Shown piece by piece: positions 1,597 through 6,877 of a DNA stretch of 7,431 nucleotides. The stretch lies in the IMG/VR virus record IMGVR_UViG_2693429642_000010, one strand, 5' to 3'. Origin of the DNA: a virus (lineage: Duplodnaviria; Heunggongvirae; Uroviricota; Caudoviricetes). The notes under the pieces were generated by a model that saw nothing but the letters and a program-made list of their open reading frames with translations, ran no database searches and was not told where the DNA came from. A program made the translations under genes and the position numbers. How positions within the stretch are numbered: the stretch's first letter is position 1; each line of letters opens with the position of its first letter.

Positions 1597-2267
1597 TGCT
1601 CCCCAAATACAAAACCAATTTCAGCCAGTGCCTCGTCCATTTTTTCGATGAACTCCGGCACCATCTCGTCAAAACTCGCCATGTACTTTTCATCCCGCTC
1701 AACCACGACATAATGCAGTCCTTCACGCTTCATACGCGGGTCATAGTTGGCAAAGTACCAGGCATCTTTTCGCGTCACCCACATGCTGTACTGCACCTGG
1801 GCCATGTAAGCCGACTTTATGGCCTCGAAACCACCGAGCCGGAACTTCATGAAATCCCGGGAGGTAAACGGGCATTTCAGCTCAAGGCCATTGCCGTCAC
1901 TGCATAAACCATCGGGAGAGCAGGCGGTGCGCATACTTTCGTCGCGATAGATGATCGGGGATTCAGTAACATTCACGCCGGAAGTGAATTCAAACAGGGT
2001 TCTGGCGTCGTTCTCGTACTGTTTTCCCCAGGCCAGCGCCTTAGCATTAACTTCCGGAGCCACACCGGTGCAAACCTCAGCCAGCAGGGTGTGGAAGTAG
2101 GACATTTTCATGTCAGGCCACTTCTTTCCTGAGCGGGGCTTTGCTATCACGTTGTGAACTTCTGAAGCGGTGATGACGCCGAGCCGTAATTTGTGCCATG
2201 CATCATCCCCCTGTTCGACAGCTCTCACGTCGATCCCGGTACGCTGCAGGATAATGTCCGGTGTCAT
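1587..2267 (-). CDS. exo: lambda-type exonuclease (Red alpha), 226 aa
   Basis: Translation [69 protein letters not shown]... matches my recollection of lambda Exo almost residue for residue. Same length (681 bp). Start overlaps the bet stop (ATGA at 2264-2267). Confidence 0.95.
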
Positions 2268-3049
2268 GCTGCCACCTTCTGCTCAGTGGCTTTCTGTTTC
2301 AGGAATCCAAGAGCTTTCACTGCTTCGGCCTGTGTCAGTTCTGACGATGCGCGAATGTCGCGGCGAAATATCTGGGAACAGAGCGGCAATAAGTCGTCAT
2401 CCCATGTTTTATCCCGGGCGATCAGCAGAGTGTTAATCTCCTGCATGGTTTCATCGTTAATCGGAGTGATGTCGCGTTCCGGCTGACGTTCTGCAGTGTA
2501 TGCGGTATTTTCGACAATGCGCTCGGCTTCATCCTTTTCATAGATACCAGCAAATCCGAAGGCCAGACGGGCACACTGAATCATGGCTTTATGCCGTAAC
2601 ATCCGTTTGGGATGCGACTGCCACGGTCCCGTGATTTCTCTGCCTTCGCGGGTTTTGAATGGTTCGCGGCGACATTCATCCATCCACTCGGTAACGCAGA
2701 TCGGATGATTGCGGTCCTTGCGGTAAATCCGGCATGTACAGGATTCATTGTCCTGCTCAAAGTCCATGCCATCAAACTGCTGGTTTTCATTGATGATGCG
2801 GGACCAGCCATCAACACCCACCACCGGAACGATGCCGTTCTGCTTATCAGGGAAGGCGTAAATTTCTTTCGTCCACGGATTAAGGCCGTACTGGTTGGCG
2901 ACGATCAACAATGCGATGAACTGCGCATCGCTGGCATCACCTTTAAATGCCGTCTGGCGAAGAGTGGTGATCAGTTCCTGTGGGTCGACAGAATCCATGC
3001 CGACACGTTCAGCCAGCTTCCCTGCCAGCGTTGCGAGTGCTGTACTCAT
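2264..3049 (-). CDS. bet: lambda-type single-strand annealing protein Beta (Red beta), 261 aa
   Basis: Translation [72 protein letters not shown]... matches lambda Bet as I recall it. 786 bp, as in lambda. Confidence 0.95.
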
Positions 3050-3054
3050 CCGTT

Positions 3055-3351
3055 TTATACCTCTGAATCAATATCAACCTGGTGGTGAGCAATGGTTTCA
3101 ACCATGTACCGGATGTGTTCTGCCATGCGCTCCTGAAACTCAACATCGTCATCAAACGCACGGGTAATGGCTTTTTTGCTGGCCCCGCAGCGTTGCAAAT
3201 GATCGATGCAGAGTGATTCAAACAGGTGCTGTGGAAGACCTTTTTCCATGTCGTCTGCCAGTTCTGACTCTTTCTCTTCACGGGCAATCTGCTGGTAGTG
3301 ACGTGCCCAGCTCAGAGCCTCAAGACGATCCTGAATGTAATAAGCGTTCAT
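3055..3351 (-). CDS. gam: RecBCD inhibitor Gam, short form only (98 aa)
   Basis: Translation [60 protein letters not shown]... matches lambda Gam from its internal Met onward. AGGAG Shine-Dalgarno 7 nt upstream (plus 3359-3363 reverse complement). In-frame stop upstream at 3406-3408 with no start codon between, so the long-form N-terminal extension is not encoded. Confidence 0.92.
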
Positions 3352-3426: not shown

Positions 3427-3633
3427 TTAGTGATTCAGGCCGTTACCGCGTCCGTCGAGAAAAACTTCCACGAGCAAATCACGGGTATAAGTGCGCTCGA
3501 TGCCGCGATGCAGATAAAGCCGTCCGCGTAAATTAGCTGATGCAGTCCAGGTACCATCTTTGTGTTTGACCAGCATTCCTGGCATGACCGCGCCGCGATT
3601 AACGGTCTGCGTTCCGTAATGTTGATGAACCAT
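3427..3633 (-). CDS. hypothetical small protein in the kil position (68 aa from the RBS-supported start; open frame extends to 3717 = 96 aa)
   Basis: ATG at 3633 has AGGAG 5 nt upstream (plus 3639-3643 reverse complement). The farther ATG at 3717 has only GAGG at 10 nt and adds a Pro/Gly-rich 28-aa extension. Sits immediately upstream of gam on the same strand, where lambdoid phages carry kil. No family recognised. Confidence 0.45.
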
Positions 3634-3904
3634 AAAAACTCCTGCCCGTAAGCTGGGCTGCTGAACATATAGAGACTTCTGCGCGTATTCAGGCGGTGGA
3701 TGGCCGCCGGTTGTCATAACTAAGCCGCCTCGTTGAAGCGACTAAGGTATGAAATGTTGAGTTGATTTCAGCTGGTCACACCGACGTTCACGCGTCCGTT
3801 TCACCCCTCGCACTCCCCGAAGCCTGCTGAAATTCAAACTGCGGATCTAAGCGGTCATCGCAACGGTGAATCAGGTAGTTGCCGTATCGTTGTGTTGTTG
3901 CGAT

Positions 3905-3990
3905 GAACCTATTTAAAACTATGGTTGTTTTATCGTCAACAACAAAAGTTGTTTTATTGGTTGTTTTAGATATAACTGGTTGTATTTAGG
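3905..3990 (-). promoter_or_regulatory. OL/pL-like leftward early promoter with operator repeats
   Basis: Minus strand reads TTGACG (-35, plus 3934-3939) - 16 nt - TTTAAA (-10, plus 3912-3917). Three TGGTTGT cores at 3922-3928, 3958-3964 and 3977-3983. The 17-mer AAAACTATGGTTGTTTT (3915-3931) lies between the -35 and -10 and is the exact reverse complement of a 17-mer at 4974-4990. Confidence 0.55.
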
Positions 3991-4080
3991 ATGGATTTAT
4001 TTTGTGACTTGAATCGCATAGCGATAACTGAAGCGAGGTTATGGTGGTTTTTTTAACGGTGTGTGTGATGAGGGGAGGGC

Positions 4081-4107
4081 AAAAGAAAACCCGGCACGGT
4101 GACCGGG
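4081..4107 (-). terminator. intrinsic terminator downstream of the repressor gene (t-imm-like)
   Basis: On the minus strand CCCGG-UCACCGUG-CCGGG (5-bp all-GC stem, plus 4090-4107) is followed by UUUUCUUUU (plus 4081-4089), about 120 nt past the repressor stop at 4229. Confidence 0.55.
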
Positions 4108-4228
4108 ATTCTTACGCCGTTAGGTAAAGATATTATTGCGGTGGCTTAATATTACTACCTAGAGCAAAGATAGGAATTAGTTCTTTACTGAATGAGCACA
4201 ATGCCCAGTTGATAATTTTTAATTGGTA

Positions 4229-4918
4229 CTACCCATGCTTCCTATATGTCTGCGGCATGCTCCCAATAACCTTACCGAAGATGAACACCCGGTTCATCTC
4301 GTCTTTCTCGATCGGGTCCCACGGTGAGTAGCTTTTGTTATCAGAGATGACCAGCAGCTTATCCTTCATCATTTGCAGGCGCTTTACATGGGCTGTGTCG
4401 TCGTACAGAAACGCATAGATACCATCACCGTCGAAAGATTTAACTGTGATATCAACGAACAGCAGATCACCTGGTTCGATCGTTCCTGACATGCTGTCAC
4501 CACGCACGTTAATGATGCGGATATTTTCCGCCTTCCTACCATCGAACATGTGACGAGCATCGTCAAACGAGTACTCAACCGAGCGTAGAACTTCTACAAA
4601 CTCACGGTTGATGACTCCCGGCCCAGCACTGACTTCTATATCAAGAACGTCAATCTTGAAGTATTTGGAATGGCTGACAGTTGATTGTATTGGTTGCACT
4701 ATACTGTCTGACATATTTCCAACGCCAGAAGATAACCATTCTGCGCGCACACCCAAAGCGTTCGCGATCTCCACGATTTTAGTTGTTTGATTAGCTTTCC
4801 CTGTTTCGATTTTCTGAATAGCAGCCTGGCTAACCCCGACCAAATCCCCAAGCGCCTTTTGTGTAAGGCCTCGCGCTAATCTGGCTTCTTTAAGTCTTTC
4901 TGAGAGTGTTGTTTTCAT
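4229..4918 (-). CDS. CI-type prophage repressor: N-terminal XRE-family HTH plus C-terminal S24 (LexA-like) autopeptidase domain, 229 aa
   Basis: MKTTLSERLKEARLARGLTQKALGDLVGVSQAAIQKIETGK... is a classic XRE helix-turn-helix. The C-terminal part has a candidate Ala-Gly autocleavage site (VSAGPG), the serine motif GDSMSG and the lysine motif HVKRL as in LexA/CI. Start at 4918 preferred over the upstream ATG at 4984, whose 22-codon extension has no RBS and would run through the operator region. Not lambda cI itself. Confidence 0.85.
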   Translation of the reverse strand: MKTTLSERLKEARLARGLTQKALGDLVGVSQAAIQKIETGKANQTTKIVEIANALGVRAEWLSSGVGNMSDSIVQPIQSTVSHSKYFKIDVLDIEVSAGPGVINREFVEVLRSVEYSFDDARHMFDGRKAENIRIINVRGDSMSGTIEPGDLLFVDITVKSFDGDGIYAFLYDDTAHVKRLQMMKDKLLVISDNKSYSPWDPIEKDEMNRVFIFGKVIGSMPQTYRKHG

Positions 4919-4924
4919 AGTCCA

Positions 4925-4995
4925 AATGTACAACCAAGGTTTTATTCCATCAAACGAAAATGGTTGTTGATTAAAAACAACCATAGTTTTAATCT
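4925..4995. promoter_or_regulatory. OR-like region with divergent pRM-like (leftward) and pR-like (rightward) promoters and three operator cores
   Basis: Cores: ACAACCA 4930-4936, TGGTTGT 4961-4967, ACAACCA 4977-4983. Rightward: TTGATT (4967-4972) - 15 nt - TTTAAT (4988-4993), with 17-mer AAAACAACCATAGTTTT (4974-4990) between them. Leftward: TTGATG (minus strand, plus 4948-4953) - 17 nt - TACATT (plus 4925-4930), ending 6 nt before the repressor ATG. Confidence 0.55.
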
Positions 4996-5253: not shown

Positions 5254-5322
5254 ATTTCCATTTCACGCTCTTTAACAATAAGCAATCAACTTAACAGTCA
5301 ATTCAAACTAAAGGAGTCAATT

Positions 5323-5481
5323 ATGCAACCACTTACATACCAACAGACTAGCGGATTTAGCCCGACTGCGGTGATAAATCGTTCTCAAACAAAACAGGCG
5401 CCAGGCCACGAAAAATCCGTGATGCCGTTCGCGCCTGGTCGGCTGCAGATAATCAGGATGTTGTTGCCGCACTCATTGTGA
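5323..5481 (+). CDS. upstream ORF (52 aa), probably the frame-shifted N-terminal portion of the cII-position gene
   Basis: ATG at 5323 with a near-ideal AAGGAG Shine-Dalgarno (5311-5316) at 6 nt spacing. Reading frame stays open to TGA 5479-5481 and overlaps the alternative frame (open from 5361) for about 118 nt. Confidence 0.4.
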   Translation: MQPLTYQQTSGFSPTAVINRSQTKQAPGHEKSVMPFAPGRLQIIRMLLPHSL

Positions 5482-5861
5482 ATGAGTATCGGGAGCAGGG
5501 CGGCGGCACCATCGATTTCCCTGATGATGTCAGCCGTGCACGCCAGAAGCTGTTCCGCTTCCTCGATAACAAATTCGATTCTGAAAAATACCGAAATAAC
5601 GTGCGTGAACTGACCCCGGCAATTCTGGCGGTACTACCGCTGGAATATCGCGGCCACCTGGTTGAGCAGGATAGCTTCATGGCTCGGCTGGCTGAAATGG
5701 AAAAGGAACTCAGTGAGGCAAAGCAGGCGGTCATTCTCAACGCACCACGCCACCAGAAACTGAAGGAGATGAGTGAAGGCATTGTGTCGATGTTTCGTGT
5801 GGACCCGGATCTGGCTGGTCCATTAATGGCGATGGTTACCACCATGCTGGGGGCAATATGA
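5478..5861 (+). CDS. cII-position regulator, possibly YdaT-like (CII functional analog); C-terminal frame as called, 127 aa from GTG
   Basis: Long ORF ending in an ATGA overlap with the alternative O start at 5858. Its GTG start at 5478 has no Shine-Dalgarno and overlaps the upstream ORF stop (GTGA), and the frame is open back to 5361. Family assignment is from recollection and needs a profile search. Confidence 0.55.
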   Translation: MNEYREQGGGTIDFPDDVSRARQKLFRFLDNKFDSEKYRNNVRELTPAILAVLPLEYRGHLVEQDSFMARLAEMEKELSEAKQAVILNAPRHQKLKEMSEGIVSMFRVDPDLAGPLMAMVTTMLGAI

Positions 5862-5947: not shown

Positions 5948-6877
5948 ATGGCAAACACTGCTGAGATATTCAATTTTCCAGTGCCGGATGAGGCACAAAA
6001 GGAGCCGCGCGTGGCAGATCTCGATGATGGTTATACGCGCATTGCAAATGAGTTGCTGGAAGCTGTGATGCTGGCCGGATTAACACAGTACCAGCTTCTG
6101 GTCTTCCTGGCTGTCATGCGCAAAACATATGGCTTTAATAAAAAACTGGATTGGGTGAGCAACGAGCAACTTTCCGAGTTGACCGGGATATTGCCGCACA
6201 AGTGTTCTGCTGCAAAAAGTGTTCTGGTAAAGCGTGGGATTTTTATTCAGAGCGGGCGGAATATCGGCATTAATAATGTGGTCAGTGAATGGTCAACATT
6301 ACCCGAATCAGGTAAGAAAAATAAAGTTTACCTGAAAGAGGTAAATTTACCTGAATCAGGTAAGAAAAGTTTACCCAAATCAGGTAAAGACGTTTACCCG
6401 AATCAGGTAAACACAAAAGACAAACTAACAAAAGACAATATAAAACCTTTTTCGTCCGAGAATTCTGGCGAATCCTCTGACCAGTCAGAAAACGATCTTC
6501 CTGTGGTGAAACCGGATGCTGCAATTCAGAGCGGCAGCAAGTGGGGGACAGCAGAAGACCTGACCGCCGCAGAGTGGATGTTTGACATGGTGAAGACCAT
6601 CGCGCCATCAGCCAGAAAACCGAATTTTGCAGGGTGGGCTAACGATATCCGCCTGATGCGTGAACGTGACGGACGTAACCACCGCGACATGTGTGTACTG
6701 TTCCGCTGGGCATGCCAGGACAACTTCTGGTCCGGTAACGTGCTAAGTCCGGCCAAACTCCGCGACAAGTGGACCCAACTCGAAATCAACCGTAACAAGC
6801 AACAGGCTGGCGTGACAGCTAGCAAACCAAAACTCGACCTGACAAACACTGACTGGATTTACGGGGTGGATCTATGA
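5948..6877 (+). CDS. O: replication initiator protein O (309 aa from this start; alternative start at 5858 gives 339 aa)
   Basis: From MANTAEIFNFPVPDEAQKEPRVADLDDGY... the N-terminus aligns with the lambda O N-terminus as I recall it (MTNTAKILNF...NVADLDDGY...LRKTYG). C-terminal third (...FDMVKTIAPSARKPNFAGWANDIRLMRERDG...TDWIYGVDL) looks lambda-type. Iterons lie inside the gene. Stop overlaps the P start (ATGA at 6874-6877). Confidence 0.9.
   Translation: MANTAEIFNFPVPDEAQKEPRVADLDDGYTRIANELLEAVMLAGLTQYQLLVFLAVMRKTYGFNKKLDWVSNEQLSELTGILPHKCSAAKSVLVKRGIFIQSGRNIGINNVVSEWSTLPESGKKNKVYLKEVNLPESGKKSLPKSGKDVYPNQVNTKDKLTKDNIKPFSSENSGESSDQSENDLPVVKPDAAIQSGSKWGTAEDLTAAEWMFDMVKTIAPSARKPNFAGWANDIRLMRERDGRNHRDMCVLFRWACQDNFWSGNVLSPAKLRDKWTQLEINRNKQQAGVTASKPKLDLTNTDWIYGVDL
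6299..6412 (+). repeat. replication origin iterons (O-binding sites) inside gene O, followed by an A-rich region (6413-6452)
   Basis: Five copies of an approximately 19-bp unit TTACCyGAATCAGGTAAr starting at 6299, 6328 (degenerate), 6347, 6371 and 6394, each with dyad ends TTACC...GGTAA. They encode the repeated peptide PESGKK / PKSGK. Followed by ACACAAAAGACAAACTAACAAAAGACAATATAAAACC. Confidence 0.85.

Follow-up and report, generated by a model that had tools for sequence, protein, structure and literature searches.

Early gene expression in lambdoid phages is the textbook case of processive antitermination, brought about either by N acting at nut sites or by the put RNA of HK022. In the N-independent lambda derivatives nin5 and byp, terminators have been removed or bypassed. 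RNA of the HK022 put type allows terminators to be read through without factors, via the beta-prime zinc-binding domain (PMC9378689). Here we examine the left early operon of a DLP12-type lambdoid prophage, contained in a stretch of 7,431 nucleotides (nt) from the IMG/VR record IMGVR_UViG_2693429642_000010 (the window), and in particular the leader that separates the leftward promoter pL from kil on the minus strand. On balance we think it probable that this leader is not a dedicated antiterminator and that the left operon became N-independent when its N/nut-tL1 module was lost or replaced; expression of kil and the Red genes would then most likely require no antitermination. This resembles nin5 and byp lambda, in which the lack of the relevant terminators makes N dispensable for early gene expression, but it is a natural and very widespread architecture of the left operon and not a laboratory deletion.

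The order of parts is that of the N-nut phages lambda and phi80, namely cI, a terminator, the left operator (OL) with pL, a leader and kil-gam-bet-exo, and the DNA of the Red and exo-orf61 part is 97% identical to that of lambda. Unlike these phages, however, the window is without N, without the boxA and boxB of nutL and without the tL1 intrinsic terminator. A sequence-only reading of this locus had claimed that no N-type antiterminator lies between pL and kil, and our searches support this claim and extend it to the whole phage family. Neither the window nor any of seven annotated relatives has an N gene, and in the relatives the interval from pL to kil holds no annotated gene. Translations of the leader matched nothing in Pfam or PHROGs, and its longest open frame, compared with 5.8 billion proteins, retrieved Kil-domain homologs only, the part upstream of Kil having no distant homolog. 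The minus strand of the leader contains no boxA at up to two mismatches, and an nhmmer profile of 14 phi80-type nutL leaders gave zero matches in it. A decayed N gene or phi80-type nutL leader was likewise rejected, as local alignments fell within the range of shuffled sequences and the profile had no match. An Rfam scan of the window with E-values of up to 10 left the leader without a match, and the literature on N-less lambdoid phages and on GevT/GevA (see below) yielded nothing usable.

What distinguishes the leader from its relatives is the place where tL1 would be expected. BLAST searches matched it to phi80, HK225, HK639, CobraSix, S9-5 and phages of Klebsiella and Enterobacter, only from about position 3754 onward, that is, over its 3' 120 nt. 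We aligned this module from those phages with 17 loci from Enterobacter, Citrobacter, Scandinavium and Huaxiibacter genomes, which were retrieved with the nearly invariant core of the module. The relatives share a common order of an upstream gene, an intrinsic terminator, CAUACC, a hairpin (H1), UUAUGACAACCGGCGGCCAUCCACCGCC, GCGCAGAAGUCU, a small hairpin (H3), a Shine-Dalgarno sequence (SD) and a next gene that varies; the window follows the module order with CAUACC, a covarying H1, AUGACAACCGGCGGCCAUCCACC, GAAGUCU, a hairpin and an SD. Directly 5' of CATACC a stem and T-run are present in phi80 and HK225, which carry N, in HK639, which carries put, in KO-TP1 and ENT1, and in almost every one of the 16 readable loci of the Enterobacter/Citrobacter group (the upstream side of one further locus was unreadable as it ended at a contig end). 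A terminator is annotated at precisely this place in phi80, as tL1A, and in HK639, simply as 'terminator'. The window reads GCTGAAATCAACTCAACATTT / GCUGAAAUCAACUCAACAUUU here, with the ATTT kept and three Ts remaining but no stem. Thus, the 3' half of the leader, with H1, the upstream open reading frame (uORF) and hairpin H2 described below, and GAAGUCU, is homologous to the stretch just past tL1A of phi80, whereas the stem and T-run of tL1A itself are missing. HK639 and CobraSix share this post-tL1 module with the window; in HK639, unlike here, a tL1 follows the put-driven genes. The window lacks both an N or put module and tL1, and has about 150 nt found only in its own family in their stead; N and the tL1 terminator appear to have been lost together.

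With neither an N/put module nor a tL1 stem, the operon has no convincing intrinsic terminator before the end of exo. From 3904 to this point the minus strand has only weak terminator-like hairpins, and the first convincing one after pL lies downstream of exo (1526-1504), with a second downstream of orf61 (929-915; GGAGCUACAGGCUCC followed by U6). RNA polymerase starting at pL would meet no convincing intrinsic terminator until it is past exo, and on derepression kil-gam-bet-exo would be transcribed by plain read-through, with no processive antitermination. This presupposes that Rho does not halt transcription within the leader, and we infer both this and that antitermination would be unneeded from the anatomy, the homologies, the missing terminator and the absence of N, nutL and put. 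The sequence-only reading had left Red gene expression to a put-like RNA mechanism or to none. We favour none, because the tL1 intrinsic terminator is missing and there is no convincing intrinsic terminator from pL to the end of exo; the put-like option failed on every testable feature of sequence, structure and partner. The exo-orf61 segment with both terminators is 97% identical to its counterpart not only in lambda but also in 434 and Stx phages, all of which carry N. In a phage without N, the hairpins at 1526-1504 and 929-915 should restrict how far transcripts from pL extend in the direction of the TraR/DksA-like gene and int/xis.

The module shared with these phages contains the best-supported structure of the leader. 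H1 (3715..3751, minus strand) has an outer stem in which CAUA (3751-3748) pairs with UAUG (3718-3715). Among the relatives, 98.6% of cells in the alignment are paired and 7 of the 15 pairs show compensatory changes, as against 31-51% paired in controls with slid partners. Its G-U pairs indicate that H1 acts as RNA of the pL strand. The UAUG of the outer stem contains the start codon of the uORF, which begins in the module core AUGACAACCGGCGGCCAUCCACCGCC (3692..3717, minus strand; MTTGGHPPP...), where hairpin H2 also lies (GGCGG at 3708-3704 with CCGCC at 3696-3692). Across the aligned relatives this core is invariant over its first 20 nt, with slight variation in the last 6. Nucleotide sequence is nearly constant over the first nine codons of the uORF, which overlap H2, and its tail is 12 to more than 40 codons long. 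About 93% of family copies have the uORF in the kil frame, into which 17 nt of deletions relative to phi80 have brought it in this family; in a minor lineage it overlaps the start of kil in another frame. The remainder of the module (3634..3691, minus strand) consists of the GCGCAGAAGUCU motif, H3 (3658-3644) and the SD AGGAG (3643-3639). Parts of this region have been annotated as terminators in other phages: H2 with a T-run in HK639, and the module-homologous region as 't-L1' in an old record of phi80. The phi80 RefSeq record instead places a Rho-dependent tL1B about 75 nt beyond the end of the matched stretch, such that the module of phi80 sits between annotated tL1A and tL1B.

These features raise the alternative that the untranslated leader, and chiefly this module, is an attenuator or safety lock that lets Rho, translational control or both hold the toxic Kil off while pL leaks. 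Expression would follow only at full derepression, and translation from ATG 3717 in the kil frame would shield the RNA from Rho; the elements would be H1, which would mask the AUG of the uORF, the uORF itself with its PPP, and the part of the leader richest in C. The strong covariation of an H1 that pairs with the uORF AUG is consistent with this, as are the position of the module between phi80 tL1A and the Rho-dependent tL1B and the relation of the uORF to kil, in frame in most copies and overlapping its start in the rest. Cardinale and colleagues reportedly found in 2008 that Rho silences kilR of the rac prophage. The C/G ratio of the leader is also highest, at about 1.55, over 3774-3684 (calculated over 78 nt at a time, its maxima are 1.47-1.56 and its central minimum is 0.5), but this is modest for a rut site. 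Moreover, the module is not specific to kil, as it occurs in many lambdoid prophages of Enterobacterales and stands before many unrelated genes in other phages, and for both Rho action and uORF translation the argument is drawn from sequence. We therefore regard an attenuator as possible but rather unlikely.

The upstream limit of the leader can be predicted from the geometry of pL, a repressor-controlled promoter. The immunity-specific OL/pL block (3904..3999, minus strand) has a -35 element TTGACG (3939-3934), a -10 element TTAAAT (3916-3911) and operators with AACAACC half-sites. A sequence of the right operator is copied there in inverted orientation, perfectly over 19 nt (3913-3931 versus 4974-4992). 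We compared three immunity types, two from within a sample of 105 aligned copies taken from IMG/VR and GenBank and a third from O157:H7. They have a common pL geometry of -35, 17 nt, -10, 6 nt and an A or G, although their elements differ (-35 TTGACG, TTGATA or TTGACC; -10 TTAAAT, TATTAT or TATTGT). The 105-copy sample, which also underlies our variation analysis, was picked by an exact probe at 3798-3783, so that conservation at the probe itself is biased. Variation in it is concentrated at 3999-3904 (mean minor-allele frequency 0.21-0.32), with both flanks conserved, and this immunity-variable block stops exactly where the conserved leader starts. The pL transcript would accordingly begin at about A3904, 187 nt before ATG 3717 and 271 nt before the kil ATG at 3633, the latter being the start of the 207-nt kil called by PGAP and in RefSeq phage records. 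The promoter and the untranslated leader of 190-270 nt that the sequence-only reading had proposed are thus borne out, the former by the inverted operator copy and the shared geometry, the latter in its length; so too is its claim that the leader runs straight into kil-gam-bet-exo, with Kil identified by phrog_294, Gam by Pfam, and Bet and Exo by the annotation of phage PhiR34_1.

The 5' end of this transcript (3871..3903, minus strand) is CA-rich, beginning AUCGCAACAACACAACGAUA.... In the O157/SIR2 immunity type an unrelated sequence takes its place, the first 34 nt of the leader differing and conservation beginning at 3870. Of its first 20 nt, 16 are identical to those at the start of the HK639 leader, from which phi80-type leaders hardly differ in their opening sequence. 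At 3886-3904 (AUCGCAACAACACAACGAU) a terminal AUCG/CGAU hairpin with a CA-rich loop is possible. This 5' end includes CAACAACACAAC, which would be complementary to the R1 seed of the small RNA GcvB. The same segment holds a near match (6/7) to the CACAACA target motif (PMC4104026). An anti-sRNA of the AgvB type was considered, the CA-rich end being GcvB-target-like, and rejected, since the genes for AgvB are unrelated to this sequence and are located 3' of pR'. The leader as a whole is a mosaic that, by comparison of sequences, comprises about 35 nt linked to immunity, about 115 nt specific to the family and the 120-nt post-tL1 module of the 5' untranslated region.

The layout recalls the put phages HK022 and HK639, in that a lambdoid phage without N has a non-coding RNA segment at the start of its pL transcript, and the conserved leader does begin at the predicted pL +1, as put would, although this is a positional feature only. 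In contrast to put, there is no match to its consensus sequence or structure and no putR-like partner in the phage of the window. We collected putL and putR of HK022, putL of HK639 and five further homologs, and sought the consensus GAACGGC..CGUCGG and GGCGGG..CGGCAAU. The put alignment had the two expected stem-loops with 7 compensatory pairs, and a covariance model (R1) built from 9 put sequences scored 95.7 bits on HK022 putL, 91.2 on HK639 putL and 64.4 on HK022 putR, all training sequences. Run with filters off on the window and on 16 kb of PhiR34_1, it reached no more than about 6 bits (E about 8) in either and found nothing in the leader, the best score in the window being 6.2 bits (E=7.7) within kil. 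No segment of the leader recurs as a putR-like copy, either in the window with its pR operon or in the initial 16 kb of PhiR34_1. A putR copy is not universal among put phages, however, since the annotation of HK639 has putL alone. With neither a covariance-model match nor a pR-operon partner, we reject the leader as a put RNA.

The family-specific, G-rich core of the leader (3755..3870, minus strand), of which we detected no homologs outside DLP12-type prophages, might nevertheless be a new cis-acting antiterminator or anti-Rho RNA, acting on RNA polymerase as put does but unrelated to it, and carrying transcription through the lambda-type terminators past exo. Its position at the very start of the pL transcript is that of putL, the core is kept in three immunity types, and the downstream terminators shared with N-dependent lambda are retained. 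The GC-rich segments of the sequence-only reading correspond to a G-rich centre (26 of 60 nt are G at 3835-3776), and the long-range 8-bp pairing that it described exists, although about 10 nt away from where it was placed: AUUUCAGC at 3833-3826 pairs with GCUGAAAU at 3772-3765 (minus strand). This stem closes a domain of about 69 nt (3765..3833) with two weak hairpins, which folds better than shuffled sequence when taken alone (z=-2.35), a segment chosen after the fact, and a Watson-Crick pairing of 8 bp arises in 25% of dinucleotide shuffles. The leader had also been described as structured, and this does not hold overall: its folding is no better than that of shuffles (z=-0.21 over its full length, +0.72 over the 5' 149 nt and -0.33 over the 3' 117 nt), and H1 (3751-3715) alone is supported.

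Covariation, which the sequence-only reading had proposed as a check, separates the two halves of the leader. H1 covaries strongly across relatives, as described, whereas for the 5' 150 nt the 105 copies contain no compensatory pairs, and RNAalifold and the single-sequence minimum free energy prediction disagree on the fold. Two variants within the 8-bp stem are wobble-compatible, but the common variants U3820C and G3804A break pairs in the hairpins that it encloses. Nucleotide diversity (pi) is 0.023 in the core, 0.028 in the post-tL1 module and 0.030 in the kil-gam spacer, compared with 0.0016, 0.009 and 0.056 at the first, second and third codon positions of kil. The leader is thus mildly constrained, much like the spacer, with about half the diversity of kil third positions and 3-15 times that of first and second positions, far below the constraint on coding positions. 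Given the failure of the put model, the unremarkable folding of the 5' part, the mild constraint and the lack of a partner element in the pR operon, we consider a new antiterminator RNA improbable.

An N-like factor encoded within the leader would be a different solution. The only open reading frame (ORF) of at least 30 codons on the minus strand of the leader is an arginine-rich frame of 31 amino acids with a TTG start (3742..3837), in which an internal GTG at 3804, 8 nt after a GGAG, would give a 20-amino-acid form, MKRTRERRCDQLKSTQHFIP. The earlier statement that no ORF with a start and ribosome-binding site exists here therefore holds for any N-like ORF, with this GTG and the frame running from ATG 3717 into kil as caveats. 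On this alternative, the small peptide from GTG or ATG 3804, or longer read-through forms, would be a minimal N-like RNA-binding factor. GTG 3804 is ATG in 24 of the 105 copies, 4 of the 6 common substitutions in the frame are synonymous, and its KRTRERR resembles the arginine-rich motifs of N proteins. However, the stop codon (3742-3744) is changed from TAG to CAG in 42 of 105 copies, giving fused frames of 129-140 amino acids, and in still others the frame is shifted by an insertion of 5 nt or a deletion of 1 nt. Furthermore, this part has no Pfam or PHROGs match and no distant homolog among the 5.8 billion proteins, phi80 N shows no similarity to the frame, 20 amino acids leave out the NusA- and polymerase-binding parts of N, and the copies compared were selected by a probe within this frame. 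The 31-amino-acid ORF is probably not a gene, a functional arginine-rich peptide is unlikely, and its service as an N-like factor is very improbable indeed.

The start of kil is given inconsistently in public records (PV340567, OV696612), the product having 129-140 amino acids in some and 68 or 96 in others. The 129-140-amino-acid 'Kil' ORFs of some GenBank records can be rejected as unconserved: the stop is kept in 60% of copies, frameshifts occur, and the N-terminal part has no distant homolog.

Loss or replacement of the N/nut-tL1 module remains our preferred explanation, and several points weigh against it. The core is kept at at least 95% identity in 41% of complete E. coli genomes and in three immunity types, whereas decay or shortening might be expected of a plain spacer. 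With its 190-270 untranslated nt the leader is a natural substrate for Rho, its 3' part is homologous to the tL1 region of phi80, and Rho-dependent sites are not readable from sequence. Finally, the exo-orf61 terminators, which N reads through in lambda, are 97% lambda-like, and plain read-through does not account for expression from pL of the genes past 929. It is mainly because of this last point that we retain, as an improbable alternative, the broader proposal that the core (3870-3755), as RNA or via its arginine-rich mini-ORF, is an unrecognised substitute for N, unrelated to put, which would enable polymerase from pL to withstand Rho as well as the lambda-type intrinsic terminators at 1526-1504 and 929-915.

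The wider setting of the leader is that of a lambdoid early region, to judge from the ORFs, their family matches and annotated phages of nearly the same sequence, among them Escherichia phages PhiR34_1 and Turner, to which the window is 99% identical. On the minus strand, exo (1587-2267) and bet (2264-3049) follow the annotation of PhiR34_1, and gam (3055-3351) has a Pfam match (E=1.5e-62). Next comes kil (3427-3633; a 207-nt coding sequence in PGAP), which encodes a phage cell-division inhibitor of 68 amino acids whose residues 1-68 match profile positions 13-80 of 83 in phrog_294, a whole-protein match (E=1.3e-37); PF27398 is recorded on its homologs. Upstream of the leader in the direction of transcription, across a gap, lies the S24/HTH repressor cI (4229-4984, minus strand). 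ORFs and family matches on the plus strand correspond to a YdaS-like cro, a YdaT-like 'cII', O and P. The right arm of PhiR34_1 carries emrE, ybcK, ybcL, ybcM, ybcN, ninE, ybcO, rusA, ylcG, Q and a porin gene, which is the gene set of the cryptic prophage DLP12 of E. coli K-12. Relatives such as 4A7 and Perceval are placed in Bievrevirus by the International Committee on Taxonomy of Viruses, and the element is an intact lambdoid prophage of this DLP12 type. Of 5426 complete E. coli genomes, 2210 contain the 5' part of the leader (3740-3910), in most cases with an identity of at least 95%, and among the matches listed nearly all had no PGAP annotation beneath them.

Two features of the plus-strand genes deserve mention. 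The 'cII' gene (5323-5861) is frameshifted near 5411, one A being lost from an A6 run, which splits it into ORFs of 52 and 127 amino acids where PhiR34_1 has an intact gene of 540 nt; either the gene is a pseudogene or the base was missed in sequencing. The O gene contains, at 6294-6411, at least five repeats of about 17-23 nt, arranged in tandem and partly palindromic (TTACCYGAATCAGGTAA), as expected of a lambda-type origin iteron array. An exact 11-nt match (TGAATCAGGTA), about half an iteron, between leader positions 3867-3877 and the iterons at 6304-6409 is probably due to chance (E about 0.8).

Between cI and pL, the sequence-only reading had placed a terminator at 4081-4107 and noted the lack of rex-like genes, and both observations stand. 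The intrinsic terminator of the cI (plus cargo) transcript (4081..4107, minus strand), a stem CCCGGTCACCGTGCCGGG followed by a T-run, was found at 4107-4090, and the block of sequence conserved across relatives begins with it. In the window there are no rex-like genes, but the last 76 nt of gevA, which encodes an ASCH-domain antitoxin, remain (4112..4187, minus strand; aligned to 3501-3576 of locus L002). Compared with PhiR47_2, the window has lost gevT together with most of gevA; its segment 4240-4184 aligns to L002 2068-2124. At this rex-like position relatives carry GevT/GevA, a HipA-like toxin/antitoxin, a SIR2-family protein and others, and it looks like a hotspot for defence genes. The roughly 90 nt between the terminator and OL (4000-4089) are conserved across immunity types (pi 0.06). 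A plus-strand ORF of 28 amino acids (4041-4127) was rejected, its frame being broken by indels in relatives.

The right operon retains one element of known antitermination systems. A perfect (12/12) rrn-type boxA, GCUCUUUAACAA (GCTCTTTAACAA), lies on the plus strand at 5267..5278, 14 nt after the cro stop and thus at the position of nutR, as in lambda and phi80. By inspection, no boxB-like hairpin follows it in the 45 nt before the next gene, and no strong intrinsic terminator was found on the 8.5-kb path from pR to Q. This boxA travels with this type of cro and is absent after the cro types of 4A7, Perceval and PhiR70_1. At rrn operons, suhB and CRISPR arrays, boxA alone supports N-independent, Nus-factor-based antitermination against Rho (PMC7665894). 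The window resembles these systems in its consensus boxA, the lack of an evident boxB and a long pR transcript, but differs in that its boxA lies outside the pL leader and accompanies this cro type only. By analogy, the boxA may be a candidate site for N-independent, Nus-factor antitermination between pR and Q. Together with the sharing of the leader module with N-bearing phages and the gevA remnant in place of rex-position cargo, this perfect boxA on the pR transcript goes beyond what the sequence-only reading had described.

We have characterized a very common DLP12-type lineage whose left operon has neither of the two textbook solutions, N/nut or put. If joint loss of N and tL1 is the right explanation, N-dependence would be an exchangeable module and not a fixed feature of lambdoid phages. 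Were the less probable alternative of an unrecognised element true, there would be a substitute for N in a prophage lineage carried by about 40% of E. coli genomes. The module with its covarying hairpin and uORF is common to N-type, put-type and N-less phages, and this module and the lone boxA bear on Rho, Nus-factor and translational control of toxic prophage genes such as kil.

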